A stretch of 64,000 bases of DNA from Escherichia coli (GCF_001677475.2 NZ_CP015229.1), one strand, 5' to 3'; positions 8,078 to 43,320 are shown, counted from the first letter of the stretch. Made by a program: numbers and translations. The notes: generated by a model from the letters alone, not told the origin.

Positions 8078-8154
<77 letters not shown>

Positions 8155-8196
8155 AATTTGCACCGCAAATTTGAAGAGGTTTTAACTACATGTTAT

Positions 8197-8272
8197 GGGG
8201 CTATAGCTCAGCTGGGAGAGCGCCTGCTTTGCACGCAGGAGGTCTGCGGTTCGATCCCGCATAGCTCCACCA
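8197..8272 (+). tRNA. alaV: tRNA-Ala (TGC)
   Basis: ggggctatagctcagctgggagagcgcctgctttgcacgcaggaggtctgcggttcgatcccgcatagctccacca. Confidence 0.97.
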
Positions 8273-11628: not shown

Positions 11629-11705
11629 GGAGCGGTAGTTCAGTCGGTTAGAATACCTGCCTGTCACGCAGGGGGTCGCGGGTTCGAGTCCCGTCCGTTC
11701 CGCCA
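11629..11705 (+). tRNA. aspU: tRNA-Asp (GTC), distal gene of rrnH
   Basis: ggagcggtagttcagtcggttagaatacctgcctgtcacgcagggggtcgcgggttcgagtcccgtccgttccgcca; identical to the aspV copy at 19852..19928. Confidence 0.97.
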
Positions 11706-15517: not shown

Positions 15518-16876
15518 TCAGGAATCTGGCATGTTGTTGTTTTTCACAAACAACGTCAGCTTATCGCCTGGTTGCAGATTCGCAGTGTCGCTGTTCCAGC
15601 GCATCACATCTTTAATGTTCACGCCGTGGCGTTTAGCAATGCTTGAAAGCGAATCGCCTTTGCGCACACGATACGTAATGCTATCGCTGTTGTTTGCCAA
15701 CCGCTGTGCGCTACTACCTGCGCCAATCGTCAAGCTTTGGCCTGGCTTCAGCTTAGATCCGCGCAGTTTGTTCCACTGCTGCAAATCCTTGGTGCTAACG
15801 CCGAGACGTGAAGCGATACTTGAAAGCGTGTCGCCAGAGCGTACGGTGTAAACACGGCTGTTAAGCGGCGTATTGTCGGCAACCAGCGTCGACTGTACAG
15901 CAGCAATTTCGCCCGAAGCCAGAGATTCACGCAGTTGATCTGCATGCTTCTTTGGCACCATCACGTACTGCGGACCACTTGCGCCCAGCGTGGAGCCTTT
16001 CACGCCAGCGTTGAATGTCTTCAGCTTGCTGACGGAAATCCCCGCCATATCTGCAACCTTCGCCATTTCAACCGGGCTGCTCAGGTGCACACGCGCCAGA
16101 GCACGGCTTTCATCGGTCGTTGGCAGACGTACGCCATAACGCTTGCTGTTTTTGAGAATATCACTCAATGCCAGCATTTTAGGCACGTACTGCTTCGTTT
16201 CCTGCGGCAACGGTAACGACCAGAAGTCCGTGGATTTCCCACGCGCTTTGTTCGTTTTAATTGCCTTCATGACCCGACCTTCGCCGCTGTTATAAGCCGC
16301 TACGGTCAGAAGCCAGTCGCCGTCAAACATCTTGTTCAGACGCTGCATCATGTTCAGCGCGGCAGTTGTTGAAGCAACAACATCGCGACGCGCGTCATAA
16401 TTGCGGGTCTGTTTCAAACCATAATTGCGCCCCGTGCTCGGAATGATCTGCCAGATGCCTGCGGCATTGGCGCCAGACGTTGCGTGAGGATCAAAAGCGC
16501 TCTCCACTATGGGTAGTAGTACCAGTTCCATAGGCATGTTACGTTTTTTAACTTGCCCGGCTATCCAGTACATATACGGCTCTGCCCGTAAAGTTACATC
16601 GTGGAGATAGCTCTTATTGCGTAAATATTTCTGTTTCTGTTCGCGAATCCGGTCATTTTCCGGAATTCCCATCTTTAGCTCGTCGCCAATGAAAGCCCAC
16701 AAGTCACCATCTGGCGCGATAGACGTCCCATCGTCCATCCATCGTGCCTGACTTGTAAACTTTGCTGCTTCCCCTTGACCAGCTGCAGAAAGGCTCTGTG
16801 CGTGCTGTTGAACGTTGCCGGTACTCTGGCAACCCACGAGCAGGACAGAGGCGAGTAATATCGCTTTTGCCTTCAT
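15518..16876 (-). CDS. mltD: Membrane-bound lytic murein transglycosylase D (LysM repeats)
   Basis: 452-aa ORF, lipoprotein signal (LLVGCQS), SLT domain, two C-terminal LysM repeats (YTVRSGDTLSSIA, YRVRKGDSLSSIA). Confidence 0.9.
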   Translation of the reverse strand: MKAKAILLASVLLVGCQSTGNVQQHAQSLSAAGQGEAAKFTSQARWMDDGTSIAPDGDLWAFIGDELKMGIPENDRIREQKQKYLRNKSYLHDVTLRAEPYMYWIAGQVKKRNMPMELVLLPIVESAFDPHATSGANAAGIWQIIPSTGRNYGLKQTRNYDARRDVVASTTAALNMMQRLNKMFDGDWLLTVAAYNSGEGRVMKAIKTNKARGKSTDFWSLPLPQETKQYVPKMLALSDILKNSKRYGVRLPTTDESRALARVHLSSPVEMAKVADMAGISVSKLKTFNAGVKGSTLGASGPQYVMVPKKHADQLRESLASGEIAAVQSTLVADNTPLNSRVYTVRSGDTLSSIASRLGVSTKDLQQWNKLRGSKLKPGQSLTIGAGSSAQRLANNSDSITYRVRKGDSLSSIAKRHGVNIKDVMRWNSDTANLQPGDKLTLFVKNNNMPDS

Positions 16877-16947
16877 GTGTGTGTCAATAGTTGCTTAAAA
16901 GACGACCGATCATAACGGCGAACGGAGCCGATGACAAGAAAGTTTTA

Positions 16948-17706
<759 letters not shown>

Positions 17707-17736
17707 TTACCTCTCAGTGTGAAACGGAAGGTTGTG

Positions 17737-18459
17737 ATGAAACCGGCAAGAGTCCCTCAAACTGTCGTGGCTCCTGATTGCTGGGGCGATTTGCCCTGGG
17801 GAGAGCTTTATCGCAAGGCGCTGGAGCGCCAGCTCAACCCGTGGTTCACTAAAATGTATGGTTTTCATCTGCTTAAGATTGGCAATTTAAGCGCAGAAAT
17901 CAATTGCGAAGCGTGCGCGGTTTCTCATCAAGTGAATGTTTCTGCGCAAGGAATGCCCGTCCAGGTGCAGGCGGACCCACTTCATCTTCCTTTTGCCGAT
18001 AAATCCGTTGATGTGTGTCTACTGGCACATACATTGCCGTGGTGCACCGATCCGCATCGTTTATTGCGTGAAGCCGATCGGGTATTGATTGATGATGGCT
18101 GGCTGGTGATTAGTGGCTTCAATCCCATAAGTTTAATGGGATTACGAAAACTTGTGCCGGTATTGCGCAAAACCTCGCCCTATAACAGCCGGATGTTTAC
18201 TCTGATGCGGCAGCTGGACTGGCTCTCTTTGTTGAATTTTGAAGTGCTACACGCCAGCCGTTTCCACGTTCTCCCGTGGAACAAACACGGTGGAAAACTA
18301 TTGAATGCGCATATTCCTGCGCTTGGTTGCTTACAACTTATTGTCGCCCGGAAACGGACTATTCCTTTAACGCTAAATCCGATGAAACAGAGTAAAAACA
18401 AGCCACGAATTCGCCAGGCGGTTGGAGCCACCCGGCAATGTCGTAAACCACAGGTTTAA
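17737..18459 (+). CDS. yafS: Class I SAM-dependent methyltransferase-like protein YafS
   Basis: ORF 17719..18459; [14 protein letters not shown]... start at 17737 matches recalled K-12 N-terminus. Confidence 0.8.
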
Positions 18460-18923
18460 ACTTCGACTTGATAGCCCGTATCTTCCAGTGTGGGATTCAT
18501 CGCTGCGGCACGAGCCAGTTCATCGCAACGTTCGTTTTCCGGGTGTCCGGCATGGCCTTTAACCCATTCCCATTTGATTTGATGCTGCCCCAACGCAGCA
18601 TCAAGACGTTGCCAGAGATCGACATTTTTTACTGGTTTTTTGTCTGCTGTTTTCCAGCCACGTTTTTTCCAGTTATGGATCCACTGGGTGATACCCTGGC
18701 GGACATACTGGCTGTCGGTACTCAAAATGACTTCGCAATGTTCTTTTAACGCCTCCAGCGCGATAATAGCGGCCATCAACTCCATACGGTTGTTGGTGGT
18801 GCGGGTGTAGCCTGCGCTAAAGGTTTTCTCGCGTCCGCGATAGCGTAAAATAGCGCCGTAACCCCCAGGTCCAGGATTGCCCAGACACGAACCATCGGTG
18901 AAAATTTCTACCTGTTTAAGCAT
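18456..18923 (-). CDS. rnhA: Ribonuclease HI
   Basis: [35 protein letters not shown]...; 155 aa from internal Met of the longer ORF. Confidence 0.93.
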
Positions 18924-19851: not shown

Positions 19852-19928
19852 GGAGCGGTAGTTCAGTCGGTTAGAATACCTGCCTGTCACGCAGGGGGTC
19901 GCGGGTTCGAGTCCCGTCCGTTCCGCCA
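19852..19928 (+). tRNA. aspV: tRNA-Asp (GTC); integration site of the downstream island
   Basis: 77-nt sequence identical to aspU; followed by a hairpin terminator. Confidence 0.97.
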
Positions 19929-26562: not shown

Positions 26563-29196
26563 ATGGACACTCCTGTTTCGCGCAGTGCACTGTATGGAAA
26601 GCTAACCAAATCTTTGTTTAGATCTTTGGAATCTGCGACGACGTTCTGTAAATTACGCGCTAATCCTTATGTCGAACTGACGCATTGGTTGCATCAGTTA
26701 ATACAACAACCAGAGAATGACATTCACAATGTGCTTCGACATTATCAAATAACATCTGCTGATGTTGAGAAGGCGTTAATTCAGCAATTGAATATATTGC
26801 CTGCCGGAGCGAGTGTAATTAACGATTTTTCCCATCATATCGATCTTTCTGTTGAAAAAGCCTGGATGTTGGCAAGTATCCGCTTTGGCGATCAAAAAAT
26901 TCGTAGTGGATGGTTATTACTTGCCTGGTTAACCACGCCAGAATTGTGTCGGGTGTTAAAAAATATTTGTGCGCCATTGGCAGAGCTGCCGGTAGATGAA
27001 CTATTAGATATTCTTCCGTCTTTAATCACTTCATCTCCTGAATTAACAGAAATGCCTTATGACTGCTCGGATTTAAATTCTGCAGTACCGGGGGAAGCTA
27101 GCCAGGTCTTTGCCGGCGAATCAACCGGAAGCAAATCCGCGCTGGCGAAATACTGCCAGGACATGACTGCGCTGGCCCGTGAAGGCAATATCGATCCGGT
27201 CACCGGTCGCGAACACGAGATCCGTACTATGACGGATATTCTGCTGCGCCGTCGCCAGAACAACCCGCTACTGACCGGCGAAGCGGGAGTCGGGAAAACG
27301 GCAGTGGTGGAAGGATTCGCGCTGGCGATTGCCGGGGGGGAAGTACCGCCTTCACTGCGTAACGTGCGGTTGCTGTCACTGGATGTTGGAGCGCTGCTGG
27401 CTGGGGCGTCCATGAAGGGTGAATTTGAATCCCGCCTGAAAGCGTTGCTAGAAGAGGCCGCGCGCTCGCCGCAGCCGGTAATCCTTTTTGTTGATGAAGT
27501 TCACACGCTGGTGGGCGCTGGTGGTACATCCGGTACGGGGGATGCTGCCAACCTGCTGAAACCGGCGCTGGCGCGTGGCACCCTGCGCACCATCGGCGCA
27601 ACCACCTGGAGCGAGTACAAACGCCATATCGAAAAGGATCCGGCGCTGACTCGGCGTTTTCAGGTATTGCAGGTTGCTGAGCCGGAAGAGGTTGCGGCTG
27701 TTGAGATGGTACGCGGGTTAGTCACCACGCTTGAAAAACACCATGACGTGCTGATCCTTGATGAGGCCGTGCGCGCCGCCGTACAGCTTTCTCACCGTTA
27801 CATTCCGGCCCGGCAACTACCGGATAAGGCCATCAGCCTGCTGGATACGGCGGCGGCCCGTGTAGCGCTGTCGCTGCATACCCCGCCTGCGAGAGTCCAG
27901 TATCTGCGCCAGCAGCTCAACGCTGCCGAACTGGAGCAGGTGTTGTTATTAAAGCAGGAAAAAATGGGTATCCGCTCGGAGCGGGGCGATGTACTGACGG
28001 CGCGGATTATATCGCTTAATGCCGATCTTTCTGACACCGAAGCGCGGTGGCAGCAGGAACTGGAGTTGGTTCGCAGTTTACAGGAGCAACGCGGCGCAGC
28101 GCCTGGCGAGCGCGACGAAATCACTCTACAACAGGCAGAAACGGCATTAAGAGGCTGGCAGGGTGAAAACCCCGTCGTGTACCCGGAAGTCAGTGCAACC
28201 GTGGTGGCAGAGATTGTCTCCGACTGGACCGGTATTCCCGCCGGACGGATGGTGAAAGATGAAGCCAGTCAGATACTGGAATTGCCCACCCGTTTGGCGC
28301 AGCGTGTTACCGGGCAGATGGATGCGTTGGCGCAGATTGGCGAGCGTATCCAGACCGCGCGGGCGGGTTTAGGTGACCCGCGTAAGCCTGTGGGTGTCTT
28401 TTTGCTGGCCGGGCCGTCCGGAGTAGGCAAGACTGAGACCGCGCTGGCACTGGTAGAAGCAATCTATGGCGGTGAACAGAATCTGATCACCATCAACATG
28501 AGCGAGTATCAGGAGTCTCACACAGTCTCCACTCTGAAAGGCGCGCCGCCCGGCTACGTCGGTTATGGCGAAGGCGGCGTGTTGACGGAAGCGGTACGCC
28601 GCCATCCCTGGAGCGTGGTATTGCTGGATGAAATTGAAAAAGCCCATCACGACGTCCACGAGCTGTTCTTCCAGGTGTTTGATAAGGGGGCGATGGAAGA
28701 TGGCGAAGGTGTCCACATCGATTTCAAAAATACCACGCTGTTGTTGACGACTAACGCGGGGGCGGAACTTATCAGCCAGCTCTGTGAGGATCCGGCGCTG
28801 ATGCCCGATTCGGCAGGGTTAAAAGAGGCGTTAATGCCGGAGTTACGTAAACACTTCCCGGCGGCTTTCCTGGGGCGTGTGACGGTTATTCCTTATTTAC
28901 CGCTGGATGAGACCGCGCGTGGTGTTATTGCCCGCCTGCATCTTGGCAGATTGATGGCTCGGATGGCGGAGCAGCATGGCGTTTCACTGGTGTATGGCGA
29001 TGAACTGATTACGCATATTGTGTCGCGCTGCCCGATGCACGAGACCGGCGCTCGTTTGCTCATCGGCTATATCGAACAACATATCCTCCCACAACTGTCC
29101 CGTTATTGGTTGCAGGCGATGACAGAGAAAACGGCCATCACGCAAATCCGCATTCGTGTTGATGAGGATGAACAGATTATTTTTGAAACGGATTAA
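26563..29196 (+). CDS. clpV: T6SS AAA+ ATPase ClpV (TssH)
   Basis: 877-aa ORF; two Walker A motifs (GEAGVGKTA, GPSGVGKTE), Clp N-domain. Confidence 0.92.
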   Translation: MDTPVSRSALYGKLTKSLFRSLESATTFCKLRANPYVELTHWLHQLIQQPENDIHNVLRHYQITSADVEKALIQQLNILPAGASVINDFSHHIDLSVEKAWMLASIRFGDQKIRSGWLLLAWLTTPELCRVLKNICAPLAELPVDELLDILPSLITSSPELTEMPYDCSDLNSAVPGEASQVFAGESTGSKSALAKYCQDMTALAREGNIDPVTGREHEIRTMTDILLRRRQNNPLLTGEAGVGKTAVVEGFALAIAGGEVPPSLRNVRLLSLDVGALLAGASMKGEFESRLKALLEEAARSPQPVILFVDEVHTLVGAGGTSGTGDAANLLKPALARGTLRTIGATTWSEYKRHIEKDPALTRRFQVLQVAEPEEVAAVEMVRGLVTTLEKHHDVLILDEAVRAAVQLSHRYIPARQLPDKAISLLDTAAARVALSLHTPPARVQYLRQQLNAAELEQVLLLKQEKMGIRSERGDVLTARIISLNADLSDTEARWQQELELVRSLQEQRGAAPGERDEITLQQAETALRGWQGENPVVYPEVSATVVAEIVSDWTGIPAGRMVKDEASQILELPTRLAQRVTGQMDALAQIGERIQTARAGLGDPRKPVGVFLLAGPSGVGKTETALALVEAIYGGEQNLITINMSEYQESHTVSTLKGAPPGYVGYGEGGVLTEAVRRHPWSVVLLDEIEKAHHDVHELFFQVFDKGAMEDGEGVHIDFKNTTLLLTTNAGAELISQLCEDPALMPDSAGLKEALMPELRKHFPAAFLGRVTVIPYLPLDETARGVIARLHLGRLMARMAEQHGVSLVYGDELITHIVSRCPMHETGARLLIGYIEQHILPQLSRYWLQAMTEKTAITQIRIRVDEDEQIIFETD

Positions 29197-29208
29197 TGGA
29201 GCATCCTT

Positions 29209-29773
29209 ATGGCAAAAGAATTAAGTGGCGCACTGTGGTTCAGTCGCTTTCCTGGAAGTTCTTCCACTAATGATTTGCAGGGGACTTTTCGTGCATCGGT
29301 AGATAATTTTTTGCGCGCGCATTGGTAATGCGCGTGCAAGGGTCAGTATCTCTGCAACATATCGCCCTCCCGCCAGAGCATATCTCATGCACTGGTCATG
29401 GTTGATTGCTCATGAAATCGTTCAGGCAAAAAACGTCCCGGCGATGGAGGGGGTGGATATTGAGTGGGTTCACCCGACTGAGCAAGCCTCGCTTGAAGCG
29501 GCGCAGGCTATGGTTACGGCCTATGGTATTAATAATCTGAATGTCGCGCCTGCACTGAGCTCCAACCATACACGCGGTACTGCGATAGATATGAATATCA
29601 GTTGGAGCGGAACATTAACAATTGCGGGGAGCAATGGTCAGAATGTTGCAATTAATACACTACCTCGAACCGGAATGAATGCCCAGCTTCAGGCGGTAGG
29701 TCTGGGTTACGGCGTCAGAAAATTTGTTGGCGGCAATACAGATATACCTCACTGGTCAATTGATGGACATTAA
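29209..29773 (+). pseudogene. Frameshifted peptidase M15 (VanY-like zinc D-Ala-D-Ala carboxypeptidase fold) candidate T6SS effector
   Basis: ATG 29209 with ggag RBS opens a 39-codon frame ending taa 29326..29328; peptidase frame continues in +1 from 29303 (track ORF 29387..29773) with SxHxxGxAxD (SNHTRGTAID) and distal His; T6 run 29307..29312 and (GC)4 are the likely slip site. Confidence 0.6.
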
Positions 29774-29775
29774 GT

Positions 29776-30066
29776 ATGACATTTCGTTATCCGATGTTGT
29801 TGACATTCCTGTTAATGATGTTCGCTTTCTGTGTTCAGGGGGAACCGCCTTTACCACAGGATGTGCAGCATTTTCTGAGTAATGCGGAAATGTGCCAGCA
29901 TCTTGCTGGTGAATGGGACAGTTCTTTACCAAAGAAGGATAAAAGAGACATCGAAAAGGGGGTTGATACCTGGTGTCCTCCGGCGAAGAAATCACTCCCT
30001 GTGCTGCGGGAAAAGTACAAAGAAAACAAAGAGATTATAAAAATACTCTCTGCGTATGATTTTTAA
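29776..30066 (+). CDS. Secreted small protein, candidate cognate immunity for the M15 peptidase
   Basis: 96-aa ORF starting 2 nt after the peptidase stop; N-terminal signal peptide (LLTFLLMMFAFCVQG). Confidence 0.5.
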   Translation: MTFRYPMLLTFLLMMFAFCVQGEPPLPQDVQHFLSNAEMCQHLAGEWDSSLPKKDKRDIEKGVDTWCPPAKKSLPVLREKYKENKEIIKILSAYDF

Positions 30067-30127
30067 ACTGTACCGTCGGGCCACTCTCCAGGTGGTCGTC
30101 GGCTGACTGATAAGGAAATGAAGGATT

Positions 30128-30673
30128 ATGGCTATCAACAACAGCGCGCAGAAGTTTATTGCCCGCAACCGCGCGCCCCGCGTGCAGATTGAGTATGACG
30201 TTGAGATTTACGGCTCCGAGAAAAAAATCGAACTGCCGTTTGTCATGGCGGTGCTGGCCGATCTGGCTGGTAAACCACGCGAAGAGCTGCCACCGGTCAC
30301 CGATCGTAAATTCCTTGATATTGATATCGATAACTTCAACGAGCGGATGAAAGCCATTGCGCCGCGCGTGGCGTTTGCTGTCCCCAATACGCTGACGGGC
30401 GAAGGGCAGTTAATGGTCGATATCACGCTGGAGAATATGGACGATTTTTCGCCTGCGCAGATTGCCCGTAAGGTGGATGCCCTGAACCAGCTGCTGGAAG
30501 CGCGTACTCAGCTTGCCAACCTACAAACGTATATGGATGGTAAAGCGGGAGCAGAAAATCTTATCAACAAACTATTACAAGACCCTACGTTACTGAAAGC
30601 TCTGGCTAGTGCGCCAAAACCTGTCGCTCAACAGGAAAGTGTCTTATCAGGTGAAACGGGAACAGCAGACTAA
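30128..30673 (+). CDS. tssB: T6SS contractile sheath small subunit TssB (VipA)
   Basis: 181-aa ORF MAINNSAQKFIARNRAPRVQIEYDVEIYGSEKKIELPFVMAVLADL... Confidence 0.92.
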   Translation: MAINNSAQKFIARNRAPRVQIEYDVEIYGSEKKIELPFVMAVLADLAGKPREELPPVTDRKFLDIDIDNFNERMKAIAPRVAFAVPNTLTGEGQLMVDITLENMDDFSPAQIARKVDALNQLLEARTQLANLQTYMDGKAGAENLINKLLQDPTLLKALASAPKPVAQQESVLSGETGTAD

Positions 30674-32262: not shown

Positions 32263-32670
32263 ATGGCATATGTTTATGGACTGGTAGATTCATTACAGGG
32301 CACTGACATGGTGGGAATGGCGGGGGCAGGAGACAGAAAGGAATGTGTGTTCTTAGTTCAGGTATATGCACATGTGGGGAATACTGGAGCCTGGAAGCAG
32401 GGGCGAAAGGTTTTTGGGGATAAATCGATCCCCAGAGGAACAGCAATTGCCACTTTTGTTAACGGAAAGTATCCCTCGAGGCAGAATGAGCATAAGCATG
32501 CCGCTTTCTATCTGGAACAGGATAGTCAGTATATTTATGTTATGGACCAGTGGACAGGTAAAACCACGAAAGTCTCTGCACGCCCTATTTCCCGAAAAGG
32601 TGGAATGCGCAGCGATGGAACATATCCTGATGCCAGTAATAATGCGGAAGCTTTTTATATTATTGAGTAG
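32263..32670 (+). CDS. Small Cys/His-containing protein without signal peptide; candidate T6SS effector (possibly Tae2-like amidase)
   Basis: 135-aa AT-rich ORF between tssC and hcp; Cys in KECVFLV and His in EHKHAAFY; family assignment tentative. Confidence 0.4.
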   Translation: MAYVYGLVDSLQGTDMVGMAGAGDRKECVFLVQVYAHVGNTGAWKQGRKVFGDKSIPRGTAIATFVNGKYPSRQNEHKHAAFYLEQDSQYIYVMDQWTGKTTKVSARPISRKGGMRSDGTYPDASNNAEAFYIIE

Positions 32671-32682
32671 AGGATAGATTCA

Positions 32683-33135
32683 ATGGGAACACGTTTTATT
32701 TTTTCTCTGTTGTTGGGTTTTATGTTGTTTTATTCACCATTTGTTGCAGCGTGGGAAGTCAGTTGCCCCGTGTTTATCAATATAAAATCCTCAACAACAG
32801 TACTGGAGCCAGATATATCTGCATCGTGGCAGAGATCTTCCCGCTATGAACCCCGTCTGTGGTTGGACGGGGTAGGGATGTCGCAGGGAAAACCTGAAAA
32901 TCGGGTGGATCTAAAACCAGAGACAGAGACAATAAAGGGTGAAACCAGGCAAATATGGGATACCACAATGGCCAGTAATCAGAATAGTGAACGTTACTGG
33001 GTTTCCTGTATTTATAACCATGGACAGGTTTGGTTATCACAACCGGTCCCTGCATTGGCGACACAGTGCCAGGCATCTTCTTTGCCGGGGCAGCGGGTAC
33101 CAGGAGAGTCATCGGTATCTGTGACATGTAAATAG
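32683..33135 (+). CDS. Secreted Cys-containing protein; candidate immunity partner
   Basis: 150-aa ORF with N-terminal signal peptide (FSLLLGFMLFYSPFVAAWE), 12 nt after preceding gene. Confidence 0.4.
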   Translation: MGTRFIFSLLLGFMLFYSPFVAAWEVSCPVFINIKSSTTVLEPDISASWQRSSRYEPRLWLDGVGMSQGKPENRVDLKPETETIKGETRQIWDTTMASNQNSERYWVSCIYNHGQVWLSQPVPALATQCQASSLPGQRVPGESSVSVTCK

Positions 33136-33308: not shown

Positions 33309-33800
33309 ATGAAAATGGCTTATGACATTTTTCTGAAAATTGACGGCATTGACGGCGAGTCAATGGATGACAAACATAAAAATGAAATTGAGGTGCTGAG
33401 CTGGCGCTGGAATATCCACCAGGAGTCCACCATGCACGCGGGTAGCGGTCTGGGATCCGGCAAAGTCTCCGTGACTAACCTGGAGTTTGAACATTACATC
33501 GATCGCGCTAGCCCGAACCTGTTCAAATACTGCGCCTCTGGTAAGCATATTCCAAAGTCCATCCTTGTCATGCGCAAAGCAGGCGGCAATCCGCTGGAAT
33601 ACCTCAAATATACCTTCACTGACCTGATTGTGGCTGTTGTTTCCCCCAGTGGTAGTAAGGAGGGTGAGATCGCCTCCCGCGAGAGAGTCGAACTATCTTT
33701 CAGCACCGTGAAGCAGGAATACGTGGTGCAGAACCAGCAGGGCGGCAGCGGCGGCACAATCACGGCAGGTTACGATTTCAAAGCTAACAAAGAAATTTAA
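33309..33800 (+). CDS. hcp: T6SS inner tube protein Hcp (TssD)
   Basis: 163-aa ORF MAYDIFLKIDGIDGESMDDKHKNEIEVLSWRWNIHQ...; strong RBS. Confidence 0.93.
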   Translation: MKMAYDIFLKIDGIDGESMDDKHKNEIEVLSWRWNIHQESTMHAGSGLGSGKVSVTNLEFEHYIDRASPNLFKYCASGKHIPKSILVMRKAGGNPLEYLKYTFTDLIVAVVSPSGSKEGEIASRERVELSFSTVKQEYVVQNQQGGSGGTITAGYDFKANKEI

Positions 33801-33867
33801 GCAACATTTTCCCGGCCAGGTATATAGCCTGGCCGGTTTTTATTATTTGATTTTAAAGGAAATTACA

Positions 33868-34401
33868 GTGAATAAATGGCGTAACCCCGGTGGGTGGTTA
33901 TGTGCGGTAGCTTTGTCTTTTGTCTTCCTGCTTTCCGGGTGCAGCATTGACAGTGACGACGTGCCGGACCTGATGTCACAAAGACTCGATCTGGTGATTA
34001 AGGCTTCCGATAAGGTGAATCCTGACAATCAGAAAAAAGCCGCGCCCATAGAGATACGCATTTATGAACTGAAAAATGATGCAGCTTTCACGGCGGCGGA
34101 CTGGTGGTCCCTTCAGGACAATGACAAGGCTGTTCTTGCCGATGATTTACTCCACCGCGACAGCTTTATCCTGCGTCCGGGCGAGGAGAAAAAATTACGC
34201 CGCGCCCTCAATAAGGAAACTACCACGCTGGGGATCCTCGCCGGATACCGCAATCTGGGAAAATCGGTCTGGCGGGCTACATATAAAATTCCTGATCCAC
34301 CGGAAAAAAGTTGGTACAGCCGCTTTATGCCAAAGAAAAAAGTCGAATTGGATGCTGGCATAGAGCAAAGCGCCATAGTGATTAAAGAACGGGATGAGTA
34401 A
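33868..34401 (+). CDS. tssJ: T6SS outer-membrane lipoprotein TssJ
   Basis: Lipobox LLSGCS; probable GTG start at 33868 with aagga RBS (track ORF begins 33847). Confidence 0.82.
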   Translation: MNKWRNPGGWLCAVALSFVFLLSGCSIDSDDVPDLMSQRLDLVIKASDKVNPDNQKKAAPIEIRIYELKNDAAFTAADWWSLQDNDKAVLADDLLHRDSFILRPGEEKKLRRALNKETTTLGILAGYRNLGKSVWRATYKIPDPPEKSWYSRFMPKKKVELDAGIEQSAIVIKERDE

Positions 34402-34404
34402 ATT

Positions 34405-35748
34405 ATGAGTTGGAATAACCGGGTGGTCTGGAGTGAAGGACAATTTTTGTTGCCACAGATGTTTCAGCAGCAGGAACGCTATCTGGAACATGTCATTCAT
34501 TATCGCAGTTTGCCTCTTTCACCTTTTTACTGGGGTTTCAATGAGTATGGTATTGGTAGTGAGGCGCTGAACATCGGAAAACTGGTACTTACGAAGGCTT
34601 CCGGGGTATTTGCTGACGGTACACCTTTTAATGCGCCGGGTCATACACCACTCCCGCCGCCGCTGACCATCCTTCCAGAACATCTTAACCAGTTGATTTA
34701 TCTGGCTGTGCCAATACGTACGCCGAACAGTGAAGAAACCAGTTTCGACAATAACCCTGAATCACTGGCACGTTTTTCGGTACATGAAAGTGAAATCCGT
34801 GATGCCAATTCGCTGGGGCGAGGCGCGCAACTGCTGCAACTTAGCCACCTGCGCTTGCGACTGTTACCGGAAAAGGCGGTGACAGACGCGTGGATCGGCC
34901 TGCCGCTGACGCGCATCACGGCGCTGCATCCCGATGGTCGGGTCGATATAGACAAAGAGTTGATCCCGCCAGTGGCGAACTACCAGGCCAGTACGCTGAT
35001 ATGTACCTGGCTGTCGTGGATTAACGATCTGATAAAAATGCGTGCAGATTCGCTGGCGGAACGATTGACGGGGAGCGACAAACACGGTCATGAAGCGGCG
35101 GAAGTGTCGGATTACCTGCTTCTGCAAGTTCTTAATCGTTTCGGCCCCTTATTGATCCATATGTCGAAAACGCCGCTATCGCCTGAAGTACTTTATCGTA
35201 ACCTCTGCGCACTGGCCGGAGAACTCTCTACCTACGTGCGTCCGCAAACACGTCGTCCGGAAGAATATAAAGAATATAAGCACCTGACGCCCTATGCCGG
35301 GCTGAAATCGGTGGTGGACGAGGTTCAGTATCTACTGAATGCTGTGCTAATACGTGGGGCGCAGCGAATCCCTCTGGAAGAGGGAACTTACGGTATTCTC
35401 AATGCGGTGGTTGAACCTACCGAACTGTCAGATTTCAGCTCGTTAGTATTGGCGGTGAAGGCACAGATGTCCGCCGACACCTTACTACAACATTTTTCGG
35501 CTCAGACCAAAATAGGGCCGTCAGAACGCCTGCCGGAACTGATTCGCTCGCACCTTCCTGGTCTTGTTCTACAGGTGCTGCCAGTGCCACCGCGTCAGAT
35601 CCCGTTCCAGTCCGGTTACATCTATTACGACATCCGCCGCGACGGCGTGTTGTGGGAACATATCGCCCGCTATGGTGGCATGGCAATGCATACCGCCGGA
35701 GAGTTTCCAGGGCTGGAGCTGGAGCTGTGGGGAGTTCGCGATAAATGA
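34405..35748 (+). CDS. tssK: T6SS baseplate protein TssK
   Basis: 447-aa ORF; position between tssJ and tssL. Confidence 0.88.
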   Translation: MSWNNRVVWSEGQFLLPQMFQQQERYLEHVIHYRSLPLSPFYWGFNEYGIGSEALNIGKLVLTKASGVFADGTPFNAPGHTPLPPPLTILPEHLNQLIYLAVPIRTPNSEETSFDNNPESLARFSVHESEIRDANSLGRGAQLLQLSHLRLRLLPEKAVTDAWIGLPLTRITALHPDGRVDIDKELIPPVANYQASTLICTWLSWINDLIKMRADSLAERLTGSDKHGHEAAEVSDYLLLQVLNRFGPLLIHMSKTPLSPEVLYRNLCALAGELSTYVRPQTRRPEEYKEYKHLTPYAGLKSVVDEVQYLLNAVLIRGAQRIPLEEGTYGILNAVVEPTELSDFSSLVLAVKAQMSADTLLQHFSAQTKIGPSERLPELIRSHLPGLVLQVLPVPPRQIPFQSGYIYYDIRRDGVLWEHIARYGGMAMHTAGEFPGLELELWGVRDK

Positions 35749-36464
35749 CCGACGATATTCTGACGCAACCTGCGGTGAATACCCTGCAATTACAGCCTTC
35801 AATGAGGGGAACAAGGTCGCCTGATAATGACGGTTACGATACGCTCGTCCAGGACAGCCTTCGCAGGGAAGATATAAAGGTGGTGGTTGAAGACGGGCCA
35901 GATTTGAAGCTCCGCTTGGCTGAGATCACTGCTGCTGTGAATCCTCTTCTGGCGGCGGCCAGCCCTCTGTTATGCGCGCTGGCGCAAATGCCCCGTGAAC
36001 TTTCCCCTGGTTTTGTCGAACATTATCGCGCCCTACTGGAGCGTGAAGTCCGCCGGTATCAGACGCTGTGCGACCAGGCAAACCTGCGCCGCGAACATGT
36101 GCTGGCGGTACGTTACTGCGTGTGCACGGCGCTGGATGAAGCTGCCAACAACACCGTCTGGGGGCGACGCGGTGTCTGGGCCGGGAAGAGCCTGCTGGTG
36201 ACTTTTCATGGCGAAAGTGAAGGCGGCATCAAGCTGTTTCAGATAATCGGGCGTCTGGCCGCCAGCTTCCAGGAGCACAGCGATGTACTGGAAATCATTT
36301 ACCACATTCTGGGACTGGGTTTTGAAGGCCGCTACAGTGTACGGCCTGACGGGCGTAAACAACTGGACGATATCCGCCAGCAACTGCTGACTCAACTGGT
36401 CCAGCGTCGCGATCCGATCACGCCGACGCTCTTGCCGGGTTTTGCCGGTGCCGTCAGTGGGTGA
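35745..36464 (+). CDS. tssL: TssL cytoplasmic DotU-like domain (239 aa), ends at in-frame TGA before its expected membrane anchor
   Basis: 4-nt overlap with tssK; no TM helix in this ORF; stop 36462..36464 immediately followed in-frame by ATG of the next ORF. Confidence 0.7.
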   Translation: MTDDILTQPAVNTLQLQPSMRGTRSPDNDGYDTLVQDSLRREDIKVVVEDGPDLKLRLAEITAAVNPLLAAASPLLCALAQMPRELSPGFVEHYRALLEREVRRYQTLCDQANLRREHVLAVRYCVCTALDEAANNTVWGRRGVWAGKSLLVTFHGESEGGIKLFQIIGRLAASFQEHSDVLEIIYHILGLGFEGRYSVRPDGRKQLDDIRQQLLTQLVQRRDPITPTLLPGFAGAVSG

Positions 36465-37061
36465 ATGCGGCGGATGCGCCGGGTGCCGGTCTGGCTGAGC
36501 GCCGGAATCGCCCTGCTGGTGATGCTGACGCTGTTTGGCCTTTACAGCCACCGGATGAACCTCGCCACCGAAACCGTACAACAGCGTATCGACGCCATTG
36601 GTAAAAATCTTCCGCCGCCACCCGTTCCGGTGCATAAACTGCGGTTGAAAATCCTGCTGGCGAACGAAATCGCCCGTGGCCTGCTGACGGTGGAGGAAGA
36701 TGACCATCACAGCCGTGTAATCTTTCGTGGCGATACGATGTTTATACCGGGGCAGAAAACCGTGAATGATGCGCTGCGCCCGGTGATTGACAAGGCCGCG
36801 CGTGAGATTGCGCGTGTGGGGGGCGCGGTGACGGTGACCGGCCACACGGACAGCCAGCCGATCCACTCCGCTGAATTCCCGTCCAACCAGGTATTGTCGG
36901 AAAAACGTGCGGCAGAAGTAGCTTCGCTGCTGACATCTGGTGGCGTTCCGGCTAGCCGAATTCGGGGTGTCGGTAAAGGGGATACTATGCCGGTGGCTGA
37001 TAATAGTACTAAAACTGGACGAGCGCAGAATCGCCGGGTGGAAATTCTGGTGGTGGAGTGA
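36465..37061 (+). CDS. TM helix plus OmpA/MotB-like peptidoglycan-binding domain (expected C-terminal part of a long-form TssL)
   Basis: 198-aa ORF; TM segment WLSAGIALLVMLTLFGLY then OmpA-like motifs (TGHTDSQP…NQVLSEKRA…NRRVEI). Confidence 0.7.
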   Translation: MRRMRRVPVWLSAGIALLVMLTLFGLYSHRMNLATETVQQRIDAIGKNLPPPPVPVHKLRLKILLANEIARGLLTVEEDDHHSRVIFRGDTMFIPGQKTVNDALRPVIDKAAREIARVGGAVTVTGHTDSQPIHSAEFPSNQVLSEKRAAEVASLLTSGGVPASRIRGVGKGDTMPVADNSTKTGRAQNRRVEILVVE

Positions 37062-37069
37062 ATTAATAA

Positions 37070-37755
37070 TGGAAAAGCTAGAGTGTAATGCGTCTAACCA
37101 TTCGCCAGTGTGGGGAGTAACAGAATTTATATTCTGGAAACTGGCGCCTAAAAAATGGGGGGGAGGCGTAGCATTTGGGCGTTATTTTAAAGATGGTTGG
37201 GTGAAGCATAACGGTCTTTTGATCAATGCAGCTGCAAATGCCTGGCATTTACCTGCCCCCTTACTTGCTGGAGTTTGTTGGATTGAAGTAGGGGGTGATC
37301 CTCAGATTATAGACACGCTGGCATTTGAATTTCGTGCTATGAGTTGGAGTGGGCCTGAATGGGTTGATGAACATATCACAATCGCTTCGAAACCAGAAAA
37401 AACTTCTTTTGGTGCGGTGAGTATGCAATTGCGAACTGCAGCCAGAACACTCGGGCTTGATGAGACTAAAATGGACAACTCTCAGTTGCGTGAGCTGGCA
37501 AATTGTCTCCAGCATGATGTGTTTAATATACAATTAGCTGCAAGACATCTTTATCAATTGGCTGAAAAAGATGGTTTTCAGGTATCCTTACCTCACCTGA
37601 CAAAAGAACAAATAAGAATTATTGGAGCTCGTTATAATCGAGGTGTTTCCCTTAGTCTGGAAAAAATAAAGGAAGATACCAGCTATGGCGATTTTATTAT
37701 AAATAACTGGTTACATTTCTCTAGTTTATTAATAACTACCTGGAAGTCTTCATGA
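37070..37755 (+). CDS. Lysozyme-like / lytic-transglycosylase-like protein without signal peptide; candidate Tge-type effector or T6SS-associated murein hydrolase
   Basis: AT-rich; start MEKLECN chosen after OmpA ORF stop (track 36940 start overlaps it); motifs CWIEVGG, FGAVSMQL, IGARYNRG resemble GH23 E…S / GLMQ / AYN-G. Confidence 0.4.
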
Positions 37756-38039
37756 GAAAAATAATTCAGATATCAGGGTGGTTATTATTTATTATGGGAT
37801 TGGTCACTATCATGCTTTTTTCCGGGAGTGAGTACCAGTGGATGCAGGATATGGACCCTTCAATAACAGCATTACCTCAGGGAAACGGAAATAGAGATGT
37901 AATCAGAAAATTAATTTATTCTATTTCAGTGGCTATTCAGATTGTTCTTTATTTTCTTTCAGTATCGCGTACAGGAAAGGGATTTTCAGCCCTGGGTATT
38001 TTGCTATTACTGATTACCGCATGGAGCTCTGAACAATAA
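37752..38039 (+). CDS. Small two-TM membrane protein; candidate immunity
   Basis: 95-aa ORF coupled (ATGA) to the upstream gene; hydrophobic segments WLLFIMGLVTIMLF and LGILLLLITAW. Confidence 0.4.
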   Translation: MRKIIQISGWLLFIMGLVTIMLFSGSEYQWMQDMDPSITALPQGNGNRDVIRKLIYSISVAIQIVLYFLSVSRTGKGFSALGILLLLITAWSSEQ

Positions 38040-42151: not shown

Positions 42152-42847
42152 ATGCAACAATATACGCGTTTTTTTATTATTTTTTTGTTATATGCCATGT
42201 CAGGAAATGTTTTTGCTGATATCAGAAAAAACACAGGAACTATTGACCCCGATTATATTAATCTCAGTGCGCAGGAATTTTTGTCATTTTATGCTCGTGG
42301 AACGTCACAGGAAAAAGAAAATGTTCTGATGTATGTCCTTGGTGTGAGTGATGCGACAGAAAGTAAAACCTGGTGTGGATATAATAAGATTAATGAAATA
42401 GAACTTTATTCATCGGTACTGACATATCTTAATCAGCAGTCGGTTAACGATATGAATATGCGAGCTTCAACTCTGATTGAACAAGCGATGGTCAGGCTGT
42501 TTCCCTGCCCGGATATGGCATCACCGGAAAAAAAATCTCCCCGGCAGTCATCTGTTTCACACCTGACCTCTGGCGCGTTCGATCTGAACGGAGATGATTT
42601 TTTCCGCTTCTGGCAGTCAGATAACAGGCAGGATAGGCTTAATGCGAAAATCTATCTTTTGGGTATAGAAGATGCCACGGAAAGAAAAACATGGTGCGAT
42701 TATAAAACGATTAAAACAGTTACACTGGATGAGATTATTTACTGGTATTTCAGAAAAAAAACGTCAGATAAACTGAATGAACGGGCTGCAAATATTATTA
42801 TTGAGGCACTAAGTAAACACTCCTGTGATAAAGGAAATAATAAATGA
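42152..42847 (+). CDS. Secreted protein with two tandem homologous domains; candidate immunity for Tae4
   Basis: 231-aa AT-rich ORF; signal peptide (FFIIFLLYAMSGNVFA); internal repeat (…VLMYVLGVSDATESKTWCGYNKI… vs …IYLLGIEDATERKTWCDYKTI…). Confidence 0.4.
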   Translation: MQQYTRFFIIFLLYAMSGNVFADIRKNTGTIDPDYINLSAQEFLSFYARGTSQEKENVLMYVLGVSDATESKTWCGYNKINEIELYSSVLTYLNQQSVNDMNMRASTLIEQAMVRLFPCPDMASPEKKSPRQSSVSHLTSGAFDLNGDDFFRFWQSDNRQDRLNAKIYLLGIEDATERKTWCDYKTIKTVTLDEIIYWYFRKKTSDKLNERAANIIIEALSKHSCDKGNNK

Positions 42848-43320
42848 AACCTTCATTTTTCACACTTAAAAAAAAACATTACTCATCAGTTCAGATTGAT
42901 GGTGATGTTTTGTACAGTGAAGTGGGTTATAACTATGAAGCACTGCAACAGCAAAATGCTGGTTATGTAAATACCTGTGCCACACGTATGAGTCTGGCGC
43001 TGATTAAATCAGGCGTCAGCTTTAACGGGCGACTGACGATCAAAAGTGGTGACTGGAAAGGGAAGAAAATAGAAACCGGTGCGAAATTACTGGCAGATCA
43101 GCTTTCCCGAGCTGATGTTTTTGGAAGACCAGTTATCTGGTGTGACTCAGAAAAATTTAAAACAGACACCAGTAATAAAAGAGGAGTGGTCTTTTTCTGG
43201 AAGATTACGGGTTACGGTGGCGGTCATATTGATCTTATTGAGCCTTCTACCACAGGTGCTATATGTCATTCACATTGCTATTTTAGCTGCAAGGAAATCT
43301 GGTTCTGGGAACTGAATTAA
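42844..43320 (+). CDS. tae4: Tae4-family T6SS amidase effector (peptidoglycan D-Glu-mDAP amidase family)
   Basis: 158-aa ORF, ATGA-coupled; Cys45 in NTCATRMSLAL and His128 in GGGHIDLIE, then CHSHCYF, as recalled for Tae4; no signal peptide. Confidence 0.6.
   Translation: MKPSFFTLKKKHYSSVQIDGDVLYSEVGYNYEALQQQNAGYVNTCATRMSLALIKSGVSFNGRLTIKSGDWKGKKIETGAKLLADQLSRADVFGRPVIWCDSEKFKTDTSNKRGVVFFWKITGYGGGHIDLIEPSTTGAICHSHCYFSCKEIWFWELN

Follow-up and report, generated by a model that had tools for sequence, protein, structure and literature searches.

A frameshifted gene for a putative LAS-fold peptidoglycan peptidase effector and its intact candidate immunity gene in an SPI-6-like type VI secretion cluster of Escherichia coli

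Wall-targeting effector-immunity pairs such as Tae4/Tai4 and Tlde1/Tldi1 are well known from the variable regions of type VI secretion system (T6SS) clusters that resemble Salmonella pathogenicity island 6 (SPI-6). For the Salmonella slot between tssH and tssB (VR1), Blondel et al. 2023 (PMC10469887) put forward, without experiments, an unannotated 32-amino acid (aa) 'L-Ala-D-Glu endopeptidase' open reading frame (ORF) with a 146-aa signal-peptide partner. WHIX effectors with M15-like or MepA-like N-termini (PMC12135965) and Stenotrophomonas rhizophila Tse2b, a 'Zn-dependent DD-peptidase' (PMC13340143), have likewise been predicted or tested. Here we analyse a stretch of 64,000 nucleotides (nt) of Escherichia coli DNA (GCF_001677475.2, NZ_CP015229.1; the window, with positions counted from its first letter), in which the same tssH-tssB slot holds, on the + strand, a gene for a 187-aa putative peptidoglycan peptidase effector with the LAS/M15 fold, broken by a +1-nt insertion (29209-29773), followed by an intact gene for a 96-aa putative immunity protein (29776-30066).

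We consider it likely that the locus holds a cargo effector gene of the aspV-island (SPI-6-like) E. coli T6SS that became a pseudogene recently, and next to it the immunity gene, still intact. There is nothing unusual about the window copy as a pseudogene, and its decay is recent; in its intact form, the gene falls into a LAS-fold effector family that is widespread, has been neither annotated nor characterised, and comes with an immunity family of its own. An earlier note, made from the sequence alone, had proposed an M15-type, cell wall-directed effector acting in the periplasm, with a secreted immunity partner, and this proposal is supported by the LAS/M15 fold, the conserved residues, the linkage of relatives to PAAR, VgrG and T6SS genes, and the presence of the partner in about 30 loci.

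Fold and putative active site of the repaired protein

Removal of a single base, A29321, restores a 187-aa protein equal in length to the annotated intact gene product of other E. coli. Neither this repaired protein nor a 41-sequence profile built on it gave a significant match to Pfam, to NCBIfam or to the sequences of the PDB; the protein falls outside the VanY and Peptidase_M15_2/3/4 profiles and their NCBIfam equivalents, and NCBIfam searches with nine long homologues returned only one unrelated subtilisin-like match. The family is nevertheless large, comprising 344 matches in a database clustered at 90% and, at 50% identity, 925 representatives. An AlphaFold2 model computed from the family alignment (predicted local distance difference test, pLDDT, 93.6; predicted template modelling score, pTM, 0.85) adopts the Hedgehog/DD-peptidase fold of LAS metallopeptidases: all of the top 20 Foldseek matches were M15 proteins, with Ply500 at E 2.3e-4, and only LAS/M15 peptidases (Ply500, VanY, LdcB, VanX) were recovered. 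The M15 assignment suggested earlier thus held for the fold searches and did not hold for the profile searches.

The conservation pattern was read from an alignment of 41 sequences with 50-96% identity, in which R52, H88, H120, D178, H181, W182 and S183 do not vary and the conservation of D127 is 90% or more. The family accordingly keeps a triad of the form H-x(6)-D ... H, with H120 (29567-29569), D127 (29588-29590) and H181 as putative zinc ligands; the first two lie in the SxHxxGxAxD motif (29561-29590), the sole stretch matched by the Peptidase_M15_4 and D-Ala-D-Ala dipeptidase models. D178 and H181, both invariant, form a D-x-x-H motif (DIPH, 29741-29752, within DIPHW at 29741-29755) that would supply the general base and the third zinc ligand. 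Such an arrangement of base and metal ligand has been described for Ply500 and TagX (PMC5061870), and, judged by the motif and that description, D178 would be equivalent to their base. Upstream, the invariant R52 (codon 29363-29365, within ISATYR) is the putative substrate-carboxylate-binding arginine and would correspond to the arginine of the M15 SxxR segment.

The repaired protein therefore appears to be a divergent LAS-fold putative enzyme outside every Pfam M15 family profile, tied to M15 by its modelled fold and its motifs. The D-x-x-H motif and the two best structural matches would favour an L-Ala-D-Glu endopeptidase over a carboxypeptidase, which is the least certain step of the assignment. 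One metagenomic representative of 422 aa (P0135) carries a canonical VanY/M15B domain (SGYRS, HLSGLAVD, EPWHW) N-terminal to the divergent LAS domain, indicating that the two are distinct modules.

The downstream partner and the genomic setting of the family

The 96-aa ORF (29776-30066) begins 2 nt past the effector stop and has a hydrophobic N-terminal signal sequence, as the earlier note had read it. Its product belongs to no Pfam family. An NCBIfam match to StoA_CxxC (E 1e-6), whose 28.6 bits compare with a cut-off of 210, was dismissed as spurious, given that the protein has no CxxC motif and no Pfam match. In about 30 loci a homologue of this protein lies directly downstream of an effector homologue, and each copy bears a signal peptide or a lipobox; a co-oriented, compartment-targeted partner gene is thus conserved with the putative toxin. 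These loci span alpha-, beta- and gamma-proteobacteria (Enterobacterales, Burkholderiales, Acetobacter, Xanthomonadales-like genera and Pseudomonas), and D29, C40, E46, C67 and Y81 are invariant in the alignment of the partner family. In a subset of the loci (Ralstonia, Duganella and Rugamonas) the position is taken instead by a 167-177-aa signal-peptide protein (GxxSN...DDPH) unrelated to the 96-aa family, which points to a second family of immunity proteins for this toxin domain.

The complex was modelled with AlphaFold2 by joining the effector through a linker to the mature partner, using 19 paired sequences. In this model (pTM 0.82) the partner forms a three-helix unit with pLDDT 88-97, and the effector loop 151-160 rises from pLDDT 70 in the protein alone to 97. 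The prediction is consistent with a specific complex close to the active-site loops.

Among the representatives at 50% identity the domain is nearly always C-terminal, and most carry N-terminal extensions. A Pfam search of 57 multidomain relatives identified PG_binding_1 in nine, eCIS_core in four, and PAAR_motif and SH3_3 in two each, together with single cases of SLT, Amidase_2, phage lysozyme, GH19, Pesticin and the canonical VanY domain. Phmmer searches of 150 representatives with PAAR and VgrG seeds found no fusions, while Pfam found the two PAAR fusions. Matches in the 50%-clustered AlphaFold Database include a Rhodanobacter PAAR fusion annotated for T6SS, as well as fusions to LysM, M23 and PGRP domains. 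The partners of the domain are therefore wall-binding, wall-cutting and contractile-injection delivery modules.

A similar association is apparent in the neighbourhoods of the relatives. A context scan with one genome per species gave 177 relatives, and 80 of their loci were analysed: in about 25 the gene immediately upstream encodes a PAAR protein (in Pseudomonas the order is VgrG-PAAR-effector), and T6SS core genes or hcp occur within 10 kb in five further loci. The position between tssH and tssB is shared by the window and about 115 E. coli genomes. In Pectobacterium, a pair of 186 and 96 aa is found as an orphan, far from T6SS genes. The N-terminus of the effector, MAKELSGALWFSRFPGSSSTND, has by inspection no hydrophobic core and hence no Sec or Tat signal. 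The pair is thus found within a T6SS cluster in E. coli, and near PAAR, vgrG or hcp among its relatives.

We infer the substrate, the bond cleaved, the delivery route and the neutralisation to be as follows. An intact 187-aa protein without a secretion signal and with a divergent LAS (Hedgehog/DD-peptidase, MEROPS M15-like) fold, in which H120, D127 and H181 would form the zinc site, D178 would act as general base and R52 would bind the substrate, would be carried by the T6SS, on Hcp or on the spike, into the periplasm of an adjacent Gram-negative bacterium, where it would weaken the wall by cutting a peptide bond of the peptidoglycan stem or of a cross-link. The producer and its kin would be shielded by the 96-aa protein, Sec-exported, helical and probably disulfide-bonded, for which a binding site near the active-site loops of the enzyme is predicted. 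In the window, A29321 truncates the effector after 37 native residues and tssL carries a stop; T6SS firing has probably been lost, with the immunity gene retained.

Several observations weigh against this interpretation. No profile is significant: Peptidase_M15_4 reached an independent E-value of 0.12 over 16 residues, the best VanY value among 41 homologues was 4.3e-3, and the D-Ala-D-Ala dipeptidase model NF007557 gave E 0.033 and 13.8 bits against a cut-off of 176. When the family profile was compared by hhalign with the canonical VanY domain of P0135, the H/D motif was aligned to HxxGxAxD and the probability was 1%. The model of the complex is a linker-fusion workaround. In E. coli no PAAR, VgrG or adaptor gene adjoins the effector, and family members from Gram-positive bacteria, Saccharibacteria, Planctomycetes and Chloroflexi occur without T6SS, PAAR or the 96-aa partner, indicating that the domain is not T6SS-specific and is older and broader than its T6SS use. 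Finally, no activity, secretion or toxicity data were found in the literature for any family member.

The strongest competing explanation is that the gene encodes a housekeeping T6SS accessory enzyme, which, like TagX or TagY, would open the producer's own wall for assembly of the apparatus. The gene does lie inside the core operon, between clpV and tssB; TagX, an M15_4 (PF13539)/Ply500-like L,D-endopeptidase encoded in T6SS clusters, is needed for Hcp secretion (PMC5061870), and TagY is an M15 homologue of a rhizobial cluster (PMC11872809). TagX, however, has two transmembrane helices and TagY a signal peptide, whereas the effector has no hydrophobic segment anywhere in its 187 aa that could serve as a TagX-like membrane anchor, and no signal peptide, and would therefore be cytoplasmic in the producer. 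An assembly enzyme would also be expected in all clusters and without an immunity partner, but the slot differs in content from one E. coli cluster to another (strain A20 lacks the pair, and coverage elsewhere is partial, at 22% and 68%), and a dedicated periplasmic partner accompanies the gene across three proteobacterial classes, also in orphan copies far from T6SS clusters as in Pectobacterium. Relatives moreover follow PAAR genes or are fused to PAAR. We consider an accessory role unlikely.

A second alternative, which we judge to be quite improbable, accepts the LAS fold and assigns it a non-catalytic role as a binding module, or a peptidase activity on a periplasmic substrate other than peptidoglycan. 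The lack of profile-level membership in M15 fits this view, and the database name 'peptidoglycan-binding domain-containing protein' suggests such a module, although the name probably derives from relatives that bear PG_binding_1. Against it, the set of H/D/H, D and R is kept at 50% identity and below (invariant save for D127, at least 90% conserved), the fusion partners bind or cleave peptidoglycan, and a periplasmic partner dedicated to the protein implies that its activity does harm.

The reading as a delivered wall peptidase with a cognate immunity protein is thus the one we retain for the locus. We also lean, by somewhat more than an even chance, towards a broader proposal: that the pair formed by the intact gene and its 96-aa partner stands for a toxin-immunity superfamily as yet untouched by experiment, in which a LAS-fold domain without a Pfam model (about 925 clusters at 50% identity) is mounted on T6SS (PAAR), on extracellular contractile injection systems (eCIS_core) and on secreted multi-hydrolases. 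Its proteobacterial immunity would be a new family of small, disulfide-bonded, helical periplasmic proteins, its bond specificity could differ from that of Tae, Tge and Tlde effectors, and the lineage of the window would be 'disarmed but shielded'.

The frameshift and the state of the T6SS cluster

The lesion was mapped by aligning the window with the intact alleles of E. coli 2012C-4221 and HCP5S3_I2. The sole indel relative to these 564-nt alleles is an extra A at position 29321, GCGCGCGC[A]TTGG, which lies outside any homopolymer or other repeat unit and has no neighbouring A; the repaired protein differs from the intact proteins at 3-6 positions. The earlier note had placed the repair in the T6 run at 29307-29312. 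That a one-base removal gives a protein of 187 aa was correct, but the lesion is A29321 and the T6 run has its wild-type length, identical in the intact alleles; a deletion within the run would leave residues 35-37 wrong (CAR, not LRA).

Comparison of alleles, which the earlier note had called for, separates intact and broken copies across E. coli. Among 5426 complete E. coli genomes, 115-117 carry the locus, and the matches listed span one base fewer than the query, as expected of references without the extra base; a 100-nt probe across the lesion found a 100% match in none of the 5426. The best complete RefSeq E. coli matches to the window have 99.5% identity over 1.1 kb and 98.3% over 10.5 kb. 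Contigs with intact 187-aa variants number well over 900. The downstream 128-aa ORF of the broken allele, in its exact form, recurs by comparison on at least 10-16 contigs of differing size, including a 5.5-Mb chromosome, and the draft assembly GCA_002516285.1 bears the same extra A. Since the broken allele is found on several contigs and assemblies, the frameshift is a real, lineage-restricted mutation, and since the insertion lies outside repeats, it is explained neither by a misread homopolymer nor by slipped-strand phase variation. Of the three causes that had been considered for the frame break, namely decay, phase variation and homopolymer read error, decay is the one that stands.

A sequencing or assembly error, with the gene intact in the organism, is accordingly very unlikely. 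Single-base indels are the commonest assembly error and the T6 run is nearby, but that run is of wild-type length and the inserted A does not adjoin another A, an identical 128-aa product is encoded on the 10-16 contigs noted above and the same extra A in the draft, and a second lesion, a substitution in tssL, lies in the same cluster of the same independent assembly. Least probable of all is that effector production is controlled by reversible phase variation or by programmed ribosomal frameshifting: the T6 and (GC)4 runs do lie inside the overlap of the two frames, but neither changes in length between broken and intact alleles, the extra A is outside both, the broken allele is limited to a few assemblies, and the frame is uninterrupted in all of the approximately 115 complete genomes with the locus, so that there is no conserved frameshift signal.

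The consequences of the mutation for the reading frames can be followed directly. clpV (tssH), at 26563-29196 on the + strand and in the same operon, is intact with 877 aa, as judged from the ORF list, the tssH annotation of orthologous loci and the Pfam AAA/ClpB domains on an identical contig. A GGAG ribosome-binding site was read at 29198-29201, and the effector ATG follows 7 nt on, at 29209 and 13 nt past the clpV stop. The frame closes after 39 codons, as had been observed before: this N-terminal fragment (29209-29328; ORF list and allele alignment) is native to residue 37, continues with HW and ends at the TAA at 29326-29328. The +1 frame, open from 29302 to the stop at 29771-29773, encodes ISATYR and SSNHTRGTAID (SxHxxGxAxD), both of which the earlier note had recognised, and DIPHWS. 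From its first ATG it yields a C-terminal fragment of 128 aa (29387-29773, residues 60-187), deposited as a hypothetical protein (ANO87373.1 / WP_065226136.1), that retains H120, D127, D178 and H181 and lacks R52. The interval 29209-29773 should be annotated as one pseudogene instead of two hypothetical ORFs. Downstream of the immunity gene lies tssB (30128-30673, + strand, 181 aa); no promoter or terminator signals above chance were detected within 29000-30300.

The cluster stands at tRNA-Asp (aspV, 19852-19928), beside tssA, with an SPI-6-like gene order; aspV is the classical integration site, common to Salmonella SPI-6. Further upstream, the window contains the tRNA-Ile and tRNA-Ala of an rRNA operon (8078-8272) and a second tRNA-Asp (11629-11705). 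In tblastn searches with the proteins of strain 2012C-4221, all core genes in the window are full-length except tssL (35745-37061). Comparison with the same strain revealed a nonsense codon, CGA to TGA (R240*, 36462-36464, + strand), just ahead of the transmembrane helix, which splits TssL into a DotU part and a part comprising the transmembrane helix and the OmpA domain. The shortened 239-aa product occurs on four contigs, one of which is the GCA_002516285.1 contig with the effector frameshift. TssL is an essential subunit of the membrane complex; a lineage with R240* therefore probably cannot fire its T6SS, and the system is probably decaying. In practical terms, with both the effector and TssL broken, the strain is probably T6SS-inactive and is still shielded by its immunity gene.

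The decay of the effector gene is recent. The repaired gene differs from the nearest intact allele at 3 nucleotides, all 3 of them non-synonymous, and the ratio of non-synonymous to synonymous substitution rates (dN/dS) is about 0.08 for the intact alleles across Escherichia lineages, indicating that the gene was constrained while intact. The immunity protein is 100% identical to that of strain 2012C-4221. In this strain, the closest complete genome, the effector is intact, clpV is shortened to 1482 nt (33743-35224) and vgrG is partial (16608-18785); lineages evidently inactivate the T6SS by differing lesions.

Other variable slots of the cluster also hold gene pairs. Between tssC and hcp, a slot that holds Tae4/Tai4 in many other E. 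coli, a BPSL0067-family protein (32263-32670, 135 aa, E 8e-50) is followed by an STY0301-family signal-peptide protein (32683-33135, 150 aa), in what looks like another swapped effector-immunity pair. Between tssM and tagF, a Rap1a-domain protein (42152-42847, 231 aa) precedes a Tae4-domain protein (42844-43320, 158 aa), both assigned from Pfam matches precomputed for an identical contig; the two form a Tae4-type amidase pair in which the immunity gene comes first. Between tssL and tssM, where strain 2012C-4221 has Tlde1 and its partner, an ORF of 228 aa (about 37069-37755) overlaps a gene for a 95-aa membrane protein (37752-38039), neither with an NCBIfam match, and the two are possibly a further uncharacterised effector-immunity pair.

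Relation to described systems

A literature search by protein accessions found no paper naming the effector or its partner, and the gene is not described in the main text of a preprint on T6SS1 of Shiga toxin-producing E. coli or of the paper on effectors in 10k Salmonella genomes. In databases the effector is currently mislabelled as a 'peptidoglycan-binding domain-containing protein' or as 'hypothetical', and both proteins lack a Pfam family. If our reading is true, it adds a peptidoglycan-peptidase effector-immunity family to the SPI-6-like T6SS repertoire of E. coli and Salmonella, and the bond specificity and the inhibitor of such a widespread modular domain could interest cell-wall enzymology and the design of antibacterial enzymes.

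The closest enzymes are the M15C L-alanoyl-D-glutamate endopeptidases of phages (Ply500 of Listeria phage A500, PDB 2vo9; LysB4 of a Bacillus phage; the T5 and RB49 endolysins) and Serratia ChiX, which share with the effector family the ligand order H...D followed by D-x-x-H, and which are likewise small single-domain zinc peptidases (putatively so in the effector) with the stem peptide as target. The effector family nevertheless has only 13-16% identity to them and no match at the level of hidden Markov models (HMMs), is longer by about 40 residues, and carries the extra invariants W86-x-H88, M156-N157 and HWS; unlike phage lysis, its proposed use is interbacterial delivery with a cognate immunity protein. 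The D,D-peptidases VanY, VanX and VanXY and the L,D-carboxypeptidase LdcB (M15B/D; PF02557, PF13539) share SxHxxGxAxD, the upstream arginine, the fold and weak motif-level HMM matches with the effector, but use E-x-x-H where the effector family has D-x-x-H, and the scores are far under the family thresholds. TagX of Acinetobacter (PMC5061870) is, like the effector, a LAS/Ply500-like peptidase within a T6SS cluster; it is anchored in the membrane, has the producer's own wall as its target, is required for assembly and lacks an immunity partner, whereas the effector is soluble, has no export signal and has a periplasmic partner and PAAR-linked relatives.

Among T6SS toxins, the WHIX effectors and Tse2b resemble the effector family as antibacterial LAS-type zinc peptidases with periplasmic immunity; compared by description, they are larger and carry WHIX or SH3 modules. 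Tae4-Tai4 and Tlde1-Tldi1 are like the present pair in their organisation, with a small cargo protein encoded beside a signal-peptide immunity protein, in a variable position of clusters of the same type, but Tae4 is a papain-like amidase and Tlde1 has an L,D-transpeptidase fold, so that chemistry and fold are unlike those proposed for the effector. The top match of the effector in the AlphaFold Database is a fragment from Salmonella Napoli, 79% identical, and the VR1 candidate of Blondel et al., which occupies the same tssH-tssB slot, is therefore probably a remnant of the same effector family.

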